This document shows positions 41,701-44,700 of a stretch of 64,000 nucleotides of DNA, piece by piece. Position 1 is the stretch's first letter. Each line of letters begins with the position of its first letter. Source of the DNA: Nitrospirales bacterium (GTDB lineage Bacteria; Nitrospirota; Nitrospiria; Nitrospirales; UBA8639); contig OY729426.1 of NCBI GenBank assembly GCA_963422365.1, forward strand, positions 736,001 to 800,000, read 5' to 3'. The position numbers are program-made.

Positions 41701-44700
41701 AACCGTCATGGCGCGTCAAAGAGAAACACCATTACCCCGCCGATATGGGAAAAATTCGTGAAGCACTCTTCGGCTTCGCAGAATTAAAAATTCTCGAGGC
41801 GAAGACCGGGAAGCCTGAATTCTATGAGAAGCTGGGGTTGCAGGATGTGGGCGCGGAGGGATCGTTGTCCACGGGAGTGACACTCAAGGACGTGGCAGGA
41901 AACACTTTGGCCGCGGTTATTGTCGGCAATGACCGACCAGCCAAGGGAAATCCCGATCAAAAGGAAGTGTTTATCCGCAAACCGGGGAATCCGCAAACCT
42001 GGCTGGCCATGGGGAGACTCTCGATCGAGAAGAACCCTGGTGAGTGGTTGGACAAGGATTTGTTAGAGATCGAGCCGAAGCGAGTCCGGCACCTTCAGAT
42101 CGTCCACCCTGACGCGACCACAGTAATATTGGAGAAAGAACAGCCCGATGAACTGGATTTCAAGGTGGCGAATATTCCCGGAGGAACGGAAGTGCAATCG
42201 CAATTTGCGGTCAACAATATGGTGTCCACGGTCACGTCCCTGTCGTTCGATGACGTCAGCCCAAAGAGCGAGGTCCCGTTCGAAGACCAAGCAGTCGTAA
42301 CCGCTGTTTTTGAGACCTTTGATGGCCTCGAAGGGACGCTGACATTGCTTCGAAAAGACGAGAAGCATTATGTGAAGGTCTCGGCAGCCTTCAAGAGCGA
42401 TCTGATCTGGGAACCCGAATCTGAAAAAAACGCGAAAACCGAAAAGCAAGCCGAAGGGGCTCGGGAGACGGAGAAAACAGAGAAAGACAAGACAGACTTT
42501 CCAAAACTTGCGAACCCTGGCATGAAACCAGAGGCAGAAGTCAAAGCTGAAATCGAAGCCCTCAACAAAAAAGTCGCAAAATGGGTCTACGTGATTCCCC
42601 AATTCCACGCCGATACCATCCTCAAGAAGCCGCACCACCTCGTCAAACAGTCCTCATAAAGTGCCACGGAGCTTTTCCTCTGTAGGGGAAGCATCTTATC
42701 CTGCCTCTTCGGATGGAGAAGAGCCGGAGGATGGCTTACTCTTTTTTAGCCAGATCTCGAGGAGTTCTTGATATACCTGCATCAACCGAGAATCTTCGAG
42801 GCGATAGGCCAGGGACACCATAATCAAACCGAAAAGCAAGACCAAGCCCCCTAATCCGGTCACTCCCAACGCTAAGAGCAGCCCGCCGGCTGAATCAAAG
42901 CCACCATCAATCCCGAACACGATCAGAAAAACGGCGGTGCCAATCGTCACGAGTCCTAGCCAGGTCATGGTGAGAAGACTTGAAGACCAGGGCACGCGTT
43001 TCGTGAGGTGCAATTCCACACCGGCCGCAGTGGGCTGAAGTGTGATGGTTCCTTTCAGTGGCCACGCGGTACGAAACCGCATGGAGAAGAATTGGTAAGA
43101 GGGACGAAGCGAAATCACCTCTTGCGCCCCAAACCAGCGAGCAACGCCATGTGGCAGGGCCATCGTATGGTGTTGGCCGAATTGCTGAAGAAGGGAGTGA
43201 CGGGTGAGGTGGTCGAGACGGTCATGCCGGTGGGCAATGCCGAACCCGTATTGGGCAGACAATGGCCGGAGATTGGTGAACTGATACCAGTCCGCAATAA
43301 TCAGCAGCACAAACAGAATGCCTCCAAAGATTCCGGCCAGGACCATTGTTTCTGGAACATAGCACAACTGACCCCAATTCTGTGAAGATGTCCTTTGCAG
43401 AGTCAGCGATTTGACTTTGTTCATGACGCTTCGCTACTATGCCTCTGCGGGGTGGAGCAGTCTGGTAGCTCGTTGGGCTCAATTCCGTAGGAGAGAAGGA
43501 GTGATCCGCTGATTGCTTCAGAGAGGACAATCTCTCCTACAATGGGCTGTGCAGAGGGAAACTTCTGTACGATCACCTGTCAAATTCGGGGAAGCCGGTA
43601 GCGAGGTAACCCCGAGCCAAGCTTCAAGAGTCATAGGCTCTGAAAGAAGGTGTAGAGACTTGATGGCAGGCATCCTAACGGCGGCCAAGCCGGTCCGAGG
43701 ATGAAGAGAAAGTCCAGACCACAAACTGGATTCACCAGGCAGCGAAAGCTGTAGTGGTACGCATAACCCAAAGGTCGAGGGTTCAAATCCCTCCCCCGCA
43801 ACCATTGCTCTCTTCAGGCTGACGGGATCGTTCTCGTAGGACGATCCCATTTTTTTTGCCTTGGACATAACGGTGATGATGACTTGCATCGGATGGAATC
43901 ATCTGGGGCATTCAGCAGAAGTCGCACTGGGGATAAGTGTTTTATAGAATAACCCGAAGCCGTGTCTCATGTATTTTGGGAAAACGCAGGGAGGCAAGAG
44001 TGGTCAACATACGATGGTTGTGGATTCCTATGGTTGGGGCGAGCGTGTTTCTGGCATTGCCCGGCAACTCGACGATTGAAGGGGTGCTGGGCGACGTGGT
44101 GGGGCATTTTTTTACCGCTGCGCTGGTGGCCGTCGTGCCGATCGCCGGGTATCGCCTGATTTATAAATACATTGGTGAAAAGGAAATGACTTACATCTTT
44201 GCGGCAGCATGGTCCTATCTCGTGATCTCGCAATTTTTGAGGTGGTAAGAAAACCGTTGTGCTGTTCCCCTTTCATCAAGCCAGCTTCGTTCGCTTCGCT
44301 CAGCAAGACAAACGGTTGTCGATCCCTGCCGTGACGTTCATCCCTCATCCGCCATGCTCGACGGCTGCCCCCAAATAGAGCAGGAGGGATTCCATGTCTT
44401 TTGACCTATGGTTTTTTAATGGAGAGTTCTGCTTCTTCCCTTCATTCTCCAGTTTTTCTCCCCACAACGGTAACGTCCATCAAGACAACGTCTTGGTTTT
44501 GGGAGCGGCATTCTCAAACACAGGTTCGAGGGGTTCCCGTTGCTGAATGAATGAGATGGGAGGAAAGCGCCAGGGCGCTTAAGCGAAATTGTGCGTGAGG
44601 ATCTTCACGAAAACGTGGCGATTAGGAGGACCGGCGCAAAGAACTGGTGAGCCCCATGAGGGAAAGACCGTAGATGAGCCACTTTGATGGATCAAAGTTA

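Follow-up and report, generated by a model that had tools for sequence, protein, structure and literature searches.

A group I intron without an endonuclease gene interrupts the single initiator tRNA gene of a Nitrospirales bacterium and is kept across its genus

How can a bacterium supply its initiator tRNA when the only gene for it is interrupted in the anticodon loop? A Nitrospirales genome (assembly GCA_963422365.1, GTDB UBA8639) raises this question in a 64,000-nt stretch of contig OY729426.1 (positions 736,001 to 800,000 of the forward strand), hereafter the window. Default ARAGORN makes no call for this gene. An initial annotation had described a tRNA(CAU) gene with a 282-nt group I intron in its anticodon loop, and both the intron (RF00028, 59.3 bits) and the split gene (ARAGORN with introns allowed, i(35,282)) were reproduced. 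The best explanation of the whole, to which we assign a probability of roughly 0.88, is that a formerly mobile group I intron, now ORF-less, resides between U33 and C34 of the single initiator tRNA and has been inherited vertically in the genus. It draws on the sequence, the insertion site, a fold that is conserved and covaries, the presence of the gene in one copy, its distribution and an endonuclease found in relatives.

The split tRNA-Met(cat) gene spans window positions 43446-43804 on the plus strand (contig 779446-779804), and its junctions read ...TTGGGCT/CAATTCC...GGTACG/CATAACCC, with slashes at the intron ends. The locus is composed of the following elements.

43411..43440, plus strand: promoter-like site, TTGACT, 18-nt spacer, TACTAT (consensus match only)
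43446..43479, plus strand: exon 1, initiator tRNA positions 1-33 to U33, with U1, A11 and the 5' half of the anticodon stem (ARAGORN -i and sequence reading)
43480..43761, plus strand: group I intron, 282 nt, ORF-less, from after U33 to the terminal omega-G 43761 (RF00028, MFE z-score and pair counts)
43762..43804, plus strand: exon 2, from C34 A35 U36 to the encoded CCA (ARAGORN -i)
43824..43857, plus strand: intrinsic-terminator-like hairpin of 11 pairs followed by a T run (sequence scan)

The intron is inserted between U33 and C34 of the tRNA(CAU), with a U preceding it and a G ending it. Relatives in which the intron opens with CG or TA exclude other placements and so pin down the splice site. 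The acceptor start had previously been given as GCGGGG; the true gene start is one base earlier, at T 43446, and since this T pairs with A72, the acceptor stem opens with U1:A72 and not with G. Among 38 aligned relatives, exon 1 varies only at positions 1, 16 and 17. Exon 2 shares 88.4% identity along its full 43 nt with the E. coli tRNA-Met genes of the mltA-amiC cluster. The split gene seems to form a transcription unit of its own, running from the promoter-like site directly upstream to the terminator-like hairpin, which follows the gene at a distance of 20 nt. The end of the -10 box lies 5 nt ahead of tRNA position 1, and the consensus scan found 1 site against 0.5 expected; the region upstream of the gene is conserved in 30 genus genes.

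The spliced product, assembled in silico, has the features of an initiator. It is 90% identical to an initiator tRNA of the E. coli metZ cluster and only 57-61% identical to ileX and metT. Splicing restores three G-C pairs in the anticodon stem (G29-C41, G30-C40 and G31-C39), and the anticodon CAU and the A11:U24 pair, an initiator mark, are read directly from the sequence. Position 1:72 is occupied by U1:A72, a weak Watson-Crick pair; the common C1xA72 mismatch is not present, and neither is a strong pair. Passages of one paper (PMC5393177) describe a weak 1:72 pair as tolerated by the formylase, and a literature search for natural initiator tRNAs with U1:A72 found no paper. The genome contains three CAU tRNA genes, two of which are uninterrupted, in agreement with the earlier reading. 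These two lack the three G-C pairs, carry G1-C72 and are closest in global identity to ileX (84%) and metT/metU (77%) among named E. coli genes, in keeping with their assignment as Ile2 and elongator Met, earlier judged by eye. For the third CAU tRNA, a BLAST comparison with E. coli was uninformative, the top match being a plasmid tRNA-Thr (79.7%), and was replaced by these global identities. Neither blastn-short with both exons nor a pattern scan found a second copy of either exon in the 2,495,695-base single contig. The view that only one of the three CAU tRNAs is of the initiator type thus holds, and fmt (307.5 bits) and tilS (178.2 bits) each score above their cut-offs. Because the split gene is the sole initiator tRNA gene in this sequence, it can soundly be concluded that translation initiation should depend on removal of the intron.

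The intron belongs to the group I family. The RF00028 match at window 43524-43730 (+) covers model positions 1-253 and, at 59.3 bits (E 1.7e-12), exceeds the gathering score of 50; the same intron in relatives scores 29-60 bits, often under the cut-off. All helices of the group I core can be drawn, among them the guanosine-binding helix P7 and the P3/P7 pseudoknot, as listed here with pairing counted across the aligned relatives.

43476..43481, plus strand: 5' strand of P1, exon G30 G31 C32 U33 with intron C and A, pairing with 43543-43548
43487..43540, plus strand: P1 extension, P1a (43487-43495 with 43532-43540) around the L1 insert 43496-43531 (alignment)
43543..43548, plus strand: internal guide sequence UGGGCU (alignment and pair counts)
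43549..43570, plus strand: P2 hairpin of 9 bp with a GAAA tetraloop, 98.8% paired, 4 of 9 pairs changed on both sides
43576..43670, plus strand: P3 (43576-43582 with 43664-43670), enclosing P4-P5, P6-P6a and the P7 5' strand (pair counts and Rfam alignment)
43586-43615, plus strand: P4-P5, 100% paired
43616-43651, plus strand: P6-P6a, 9 of 11 P6a pairs changed on both sides
43655-43660, plus strand: P7 5' strand with a bulged A, P7 being invariant
43672..43702, plus strand: P8 with an inner stem, 96.1% paired, both-side change in 3 of 12 pairs
43711..43715, plus strand: P7 3' strand AGUCC, on the guanosine-binding helix side, invariant in 38/38
43719..43757, plus strand: P9 three-way junction of P9 (CCAC/GUGG), P9a and P9b with a GAAA tetraloop, 99-100% paired

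The U before the intron and the terminal omega-G (G 43761, alignment G316) are invariant in 38/38 aligned genes, as is the U33.G wobble at the 5' splice site. P1 (helix 1) is 96.9% paired and is also yielded by the MFE fold, which alone recovers P1, P1a, P2-P5 and P8 with a z-score of -4.8. The 5' part of the guide, together with A 43542, can alternatively pair with CAU of the 3' exon to form a predicted P10. Across the 38 relatives, 94.9% of the P1-P9 pairs are kept, compared with 32-44% when the partners are slid by 1-3 columns, a contrast in which the fold has an advantage because it was derived from the window sequence. Both sides of the pair change in 27 of 87 pairs against 12.1 +/- 2.1 in shuffles, and none of 500 shuffles attains as many, although related sequences may beat shuffles without any structure. 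These changes concern P2, P6a, P8 and P9a/b, with both-side changes in P9a as well as in P9b, and the inner hairpin P1b (3 of 4 pairs). P3, P4, P7 and P9 are invariant and, never varying, carry no information for or against the fold. L1 and L5 may additionally pair (CCGCU with AGCGG), with the window itself mismatched at the fifth pair. By reading, the architecture, with a short P5 and GAAA on P2 and P9b, is compatible with subgroup IC3.

The intron is fixed in the genus. It had been annotated as present in every sampled genus genome (17/17); in the wider set, the split gene is full-length in 35 of 37 other species, at 79-96% identity, in one copy each and with no intronless copy, and two species gave no match. 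In these two (G006 and G009, with 90 and 150 contigs) neither exon was matched, so in these fragmented assemblies the gene is simply unassembled. The relatives' intron matches of the same size class do lie in tRNA-fMet, a point that the initial annotation had left unchecked. The genome analysed also carries a second 282-nt group I intron, in tRNA-Asn; alignment of the two shows a shared core only, and a recent copy between them was therefore rejected.

This distribution bears on the idea that the split gene is a relic that no longer works, initiation being carried by an unassembled intronless copy or by an elongator-type tRNA(CAU). The assembly is MAG-type and 98.58% complete by markers, which leaves room for a small missing piece, and U1:A72 deviates from the usual mismatch. 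However, many genus genomes are single contigs, each with exactly one whole-gene match and without intronless exons; the exons of all 38 genes are invariant except at positions 1, 16 and 17, and compensatory changes keep the intron fold. The three G-C pairs are missing from the other CAU tRNAs, whose 1:72 pair is G1-C72, as described above. We therefore give the relic almost no credence.

Descent within the genus can be set against recent, repeated spread by homing or recombination. Outside the genus the element is sporadic, being present in 9 of 77 family genomes and in 36 of 401 of a phylum sample; RF00028 matches occur in 51 of 115 family genomes. It is also mobile elsewhere. In four relatives (G106, G107, G052 and G056), the intron is 654-657 nt long and contains a PF11645 ORF in L1 (E 6e-51); such an ORF lies inside the intron of G067 as well, and ORFs are found in the L1 position in L093 and L096. 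In the Nitrospira-type relatives, the L1 endonuclease is a PD-(D/E)XK protein of 149 aa, and the G106 and G107 ORFs cover 136 of 138 profile positions of PF11645. The protein matches PDB 2ost_A (E 1.7e-67, 147 residues, ~70% identity as counted by hand from the match line), which points to transfer between phyla. The PDB table labels 2ost 'Putative endonuclease', and we take it to be I-Ssp6803I, the Synechocystis enzyme. The endonuclease ORF is intact in two genomes, frameshifted in one and broken by a stop in one, and in introns of 321-346 nt nothing but its 3' end is left.

The genus itself presents another picture. PF11645 was found in 0 of 37 genus genomes and not in G000, the ORF-less L1 layout is common to the genus introns, and identity to the window is graded across species from 96% to 79%. 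The neighbours of the locus are also kept: among 29 other loci, 26 show synteny for the upstream ORF and 21 for the downstream ORF. Recent spread within the genus is consequently highly improbable, and vertical inheritance of an ORF-less intron is preferred.

No endonuclease gene or coding remnant was recognised in the window. Two ORFs, of 63 aa and 123 aa, overlap the intron, but neither has a match in Pfam, and an endonuclease search (P0001) of the whole genome at E <= 10 returned nothing. In a tblastn search of the window L1 for a remnant, only the last 12 codons match. This segment coincides with the guide sequence and P2, so it is no evidence for a coding relic and was set aside. The genus L1 may nevertheless have descended from an endonuclease ORF, to judge by a short nucleotide likeness (TCCGCTGATT).

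A course of events consistent with these features can be proposed. The ancestor would have been a mobile element with a PD-(D/E)XK endonuclease of the I-Ssp6803I type in L1; the gene, which some Nitrospira-type relatives retain in intact or decaying form, would have been lost by deletion from the window intron. Within the genus the ORF-less form is fixed and vertically inherited. Judged from its conservation, the intron probably still splices itself. In the precursor, exon GGCU would pair with the intron guide to form P1 with the U33.G wobble at the splice site, and a free guanosine bound in P7 would attack after U33. The terminal G 43761 would subsequently occupy the same site, the guide AUG would align the CAU of the 3' exon through P10, and the exons would be ligated to give the junction ...GGGCU-CAUAACCC... 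Ligation would restore the anticodon loop CUCAUAA and the three anticodon-stem G-C pairs; charging, formylation (fmt is present) and use in initiation would be possible only after splicing.

Whether this ribozyme would act unaided is a separate matter. It might need a host protein, such as a maturase-like factor or a chaperone, or special conditions, or its splicing might control the amount of initiator tRNA. An intron without endonuclease is kept in the sole initiator gene genus-wide (35/37), it shows stronger conservation (79-96% nt) than does the neighbouring protein (72-87% aa), and P1, although short (4 exon pairs), holds a large L1 insert. Lethality of failed splicing would predict strong conservation just as well, however, and an intron that occupies every copy and is seldom lost precisely should reach fixation without any benefit; moreover, no candidate cofactor gene adjoins the tRNA gene. 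This reading is unlikely. A bolder version, which we regard as very doubtful, is that the ORF-less intron was co-opted in the genus, so that guanosine- and Mg2+-dependent self-splicing would gate the supply of initiator tRNA and tie initiation to the GTP or energy state; the genus-specific U1:A72 pair and the almost leaderless promoter could belong to the same adaptation. The intron is structurally intact in the only initiator gene through a radiation of at least 36 species and could for this reason act as a gate. A stand-alone, vertically inherited ribozyme remains the preferred account.

The main practical value of these observations lies in the annotation of initiator tRNA in this Nitrospirales genus. 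Default tRNA finders miss the split gene, so genomes of the genus will appear to be without an initiator tRNA. The relevant parts of the tRNAscan-SE 2.0 paper name group I introns as a known cause of missing fMet calls and note such an apparent lack in 36 other genomes; where the portions of its supplement consulted mention Nitrospira, they do so for different tRNA calls only. With the present case, the known hosts of the I-Ssp6803I-type mobile intron come to include Nitrospirota, although Nitrospirae may already be counted in Williams 2020. Among titles, opening lines of abstracts and passages in the literature on group I introns in Nitrospira, no paper on this case was found. One family here spans the life stages of a homing element: empty sites, intact, frameshifted and broken endonuclease genes, deletion derivatives and a genus-fixed ORF-less intron. 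No new mechanism is revealed.

Compared with known tRNA introns, the window intron is of the classical fMet.2Ug type. This type is one of four classical bacterial tRNA intron types, all IC3, and is inserted after nucleotide 2 of the anticodon loop, as described for cyanobacteria (Williams 2020). The tRNA-fMet intron of Synechocystis PCC 6803, Gloeobacter and other cyanobacteria shares the host gene, the U33/C34 site, the U at -1 and the G at omega. Biniszkiewicz, Cesnaviciene and Shub are said to have described in 1994 a group I intron at the same site in the sole initiator tRNA gene of a cyanobacterium, and to our knowledge the intron-bearing tRNA-fMet gene of Synechocystis is the only initiator gene there. 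ORF-less and ORF-bearing forms occur in both the cyanobacterial and the Nitrospirota groups, the ORF-bearing Nitrospirota relatives being 654-657 nt long; here, in contrast, the host is a Nitrospirales genus and the intron is fixed genus-wide (35/37) rather than sporadic. The core sequence of the window intron presumably resembles that of Azoarcus. The IC3 introns of Azoarcus tRNA-Ile(CAU) and Anabaena tRNA-Leu(UAA) are likewise small introns of the anticodon loop in which P5 is short, P5abc is absent and both P2 and P9 end in GNRA tetraloops, here GAAA in each case. They differ in host tRNA and loop position (Ile2.5Ug and Leu.3Ug), and the window intron, unlike them, carries an L1 insert in a long extension of P1. 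I-Ssp6803I (PF11645, PDB 2OST) is matched by the G106 and G107 ORFs, which lie within the intron like slr0915 in the available portion of PMC11622646, whereas the window intron has no such ORF and its genome no copy at all. A link to the cyanobacterial element is thus suggested by the insertion site and the endonuclease protein rather than by the ribozyme sequence.

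The Rfam group I intron model RF00028 matches the window at 43524-43730 on the forward strand with 59.3 bits (E 1.7e-12; gathering score 50). In its default mode, ARAGORN calls no tRNA at 43446-43804; once introns are allowed, it reports a tRNA-Met(cat) interrupted by a 282-nt intron in this same interval (contig 779446-779804). These two calls bear out the 282-nt group I intron in a tRNA(CAU) gene described in the initial annotation, and correct its gene start (43447), which was one base late. Position 1 is the T at 43446, which lies opposite A72, so the acceptor stem starts with U1:A72. 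The features of the window are as follows.

35166-37006: CRISPR array, 26 repeats of 37 nt (Rfam CRISPR-DR16, RF01330, 35.5-42.3 bits)
43411-43440, forward: promoter-like site, TTGACT, 18 nt, TACTAT, ending 5 nt before tRNA position 1
43446-43804, forward: split initiator tRNA(CAU) gene
43446-43479, forward: exon 1
43480-43761, forward: group I intron
43762-43804, forward: exon 2
20 nt past CCA: terminator-like hairpin, 11 pairs and a T run

The junctions read ...TTGGGCT/CAATTCC...GGTACG/CATAACCC. Because both junctions contain the letters CA, the window sequence alone permits three placements of the intron, a single one of which has U preceding the intron and G at its end. Relatives' introns that begin with CG or TA decide the placement, which puts the intron between U33 and C34. 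U33 and the intron-terminal G are invariant in the alignment of 38 genus and family genes.

The standard group I structure with P1, P1a, P2, P3, P4, P5, P6/P6a, P7, P8 and P9 was drawn on the window sequence. In P1, exon GGCU and intron CA pair with UGGGCU at 43543-43548, the internal guide sequence, and P1a, a long extension of P1, encloses an insert in L1. GAAA loops are present on P2 and on P9b, which is an arm of the P9 three-way junction, and P7 contains a bulged A. As read from the sequence, a P10 could form between the CAU of the 3´ exon and the AUG that immediately precedes the guide. Over 38 sequences the drawn structure is 94.9% paired, compared with 32-44% after a shift of every 3´ partner by 1-3 columns, and two-sided changes occur in 27 of 87 pairs, compared with 12.1 ± 2.1 in shuffles (0/500 reach 27); both controls are somewhat flattering, since the structure was taken from one of the 38 sequences and the sequences are related. 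The compensatory changes are located in P1b, P2, P6a, P8, P9a and P9b; P3, P4, P7 and P9 are invariant in all aligned sequences and thus uninformative on the fold. An unconstrained MFE fold regains P1, P1a, P2-P5 and P8 unaided (z -4.8). A possible tertiary pairing joins CCGCU in L1 (43506-43510) with AGCGR in L5 (43600-43604). Of 41 introns, 32 form all five of its pairs; the first is mostly U-A (C-G in the family genomes G039 and G056), and the fifth in the window itself is C×A. In relatives with an intronic endonuclease ORF, the L1 piece falls within this ORF (codons PRSAK).

The host, whose genus within the Nitrospirales is known from metagenome-assembled genomes, is represented by a single contig (2,495,695 bases; marker-based completeness 98.58%), in which ARAGORN with introns allowed finds three CAU tRNA genes. 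Spliced in silico, the product of the split gene is 90% identical to the E. coli tRNA of the mltA-amiC cluster, presumably the initiator genes metZWV, compared with 57-61% to ileX, metT and metU. G29-C41, G30-C40 and G31-C39 are regained in the spliced tRNA, and A11:U24 is present. Apart from the split gene, blastn-short found no second copy of either exon in the whole genome, which together with the 90% match upholds the claim that this is the only initiator-type tRNA gene. Six loose pattern matches to an initiator-type anticodon arm exist in the genome, none of which coincides with an ARAGORN tRNA. The other two genes, previously judged by eye as Ile2-like and elongator-like, keep these identities: contig 177601-177677 is nearest (84%) to the E. 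coli tRNA-Ile beside mug, which has a CAU anticodon and which we take to be ileX, and contig 1795431-1795506 is nearest (77%) to metT and metU. The cloverleaf of the latter, by reading, has an A31×G39 mismatch at the base of the anticodon stem. Both fmt (307.5 bits) and tilS (178.2 bits) exceed their cut-offs.

Bacterial initiator tRNAs usually carry a C1×A72 mismatch. In 33/33 aligned genus genes and in the family genome G052, position 1 is T; the 8 further family genes examined have C there. U1:A72 in the genus is thus a weak Watson-Crick pair. One paper indicates that a weak 1:72 pair is tolerated by the formylase (PMC5393177).

Judged from the promoter-like site and the terminator-like hairpin, the split gene appears to be transcribed on its own. 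The 5-nt spacing from the -10-like box TACTAT to position 1 is kept in the genus, and the primary transcript would have next to no 5´ leader for RNase P removal. On the group I pathway, a guanosine bound in P7 would attack after U33, the terminal G would then take its place in the same P7 site with the 3´ exon aligned by P10, and exon ligation would restore the anticodon loop and stem. As there is no other initiator gene, all initiator tRNA would have to pass through intron splicing, and it is sound reasoning that the initiator supply would depend on this predicted reaction.

Another group I intron of the genome lies outside the window, in its sole tRNA-Asn(GUU) gene (343624-343981, reverse strand); it scores 62.6 bits, has a called length of 282 nt and follows anticodon base 2 (GU/U). 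When the 30 best RF00028 loci of the family are sorted by host gene, tRNA-Asn accounts for 24 and tRNA-Met for 6. No intron interrupts tRNA-Leu(UAA).

A group I intron hit of this size class had been reported in 17 of 17 sampled genomes of the genus. The full 359-nt split gene is matched in 35 of 37 other species, once in each (79-96% identity; intron 275-292 nt). The two remaining assemblies, G006 and G009 (90 and 150 contigs), give no match to either exon, which means that the gene did not assemble there. Among 29 other loci, an upstream 242-aa ORF adjoins the split gene in 26 and a downstream 103-aa ORF in 21, which fits vertical inheritance within the genus. Beyond the genus, the intron sits in tRNA-fMet in 9 of 77 genomes of the family (G039 twice, G041, G047, G052, G056, G067, G105, G106 and G107). 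Another 59 give exon-sized matches only, and uninterrupted 77-nt tRNA-fMet genes were confirmed in two of these (G104 and G112). The two intron-bearing copies of G039 (~16 Mb) lie on different contigs (C19:371196-371551 and C3:12135-12490), and this assembly may be mixed. In an even sample of the phylum the intron is matched in 36 of 401 genomes, including 3/75 in a second family, 1/1 in a family of the same class and 1/11 in a more distant family.

Longer introns in the family account for the L1 insert. In G106 and G107 (657 and 656 nt), L1 contains a 149-codon ORF, which matches Pfam PF11645 (PD-(D/E)XK endonuclease; E 6e-51 and 1e-52), and it aligns with PDB 2ost_A over 147 residues (E 1.7e-67; ~70% identity, counted from the match line), which we take to be I-Ssp6803I, the homing endonuclease belonging to the tRNA-fMet intron of Synechocystis. 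The final 12 codons of the ORF cover the guide sequence and reach into P2. In G052 a frameshift disrupts the ORF close to its beginning, in G056 a stop and a frameshift interrupt it, and in G067 contig ends truncate it; solely its 3´ end is left in G105, G041 and G047 (344, 346 and 321 nt), and PF11645 has no match in the host or in 37 other genus genomes. Together these forms resemble the familiar course of a decaying homing element, with invasion, endonuclease loss and fixation of an ORF-less ribozyme in the genus. A short nucleotide likeness around TCCGCTGATT, the one basis for this step, tentatively suggests that the genus L1 was derived from the ORF by deletion. Orphan copies of the intron 3´ part with exon 2 occur 1.7 kb downstream of the intronless tRNA-fMet gene in G104 (C1:1200513-1200656) and ~260 nt downstream of the intron-bearing gene in G056 (C1:3236311-3236459), and resemble remnants of earlier homing or recombination.

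The split gene is thus confirmed, and the initial annotation was right in its main points; the value of the finding lies in annotation and in a neat decay series inside one family. Searches of one literature library for group I introns in Nitrospira turned up no account of this case. The tRNAscan-SE 2.0 paper attributes the lack of fMet or Ile2 calls in 36 genomes to group I introns and names Gloeobacter and Synechocystis, and a 2024 paper places slr0915, encoding I-Ssp6803I, in the Synechocystis intron (PMC11622646). Williams (bioRxiv 2020) sorts the classical tRNA introns of bacteria into four types, each of subgroup IC3; one is fMet.2Ug, which follows the second anticodon-loop nucleotide of tRNA-fMet. 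The insertion site of fMet.2Ug is identical to that of the split gene, which belongs to an already known kind of system and is no new kind.
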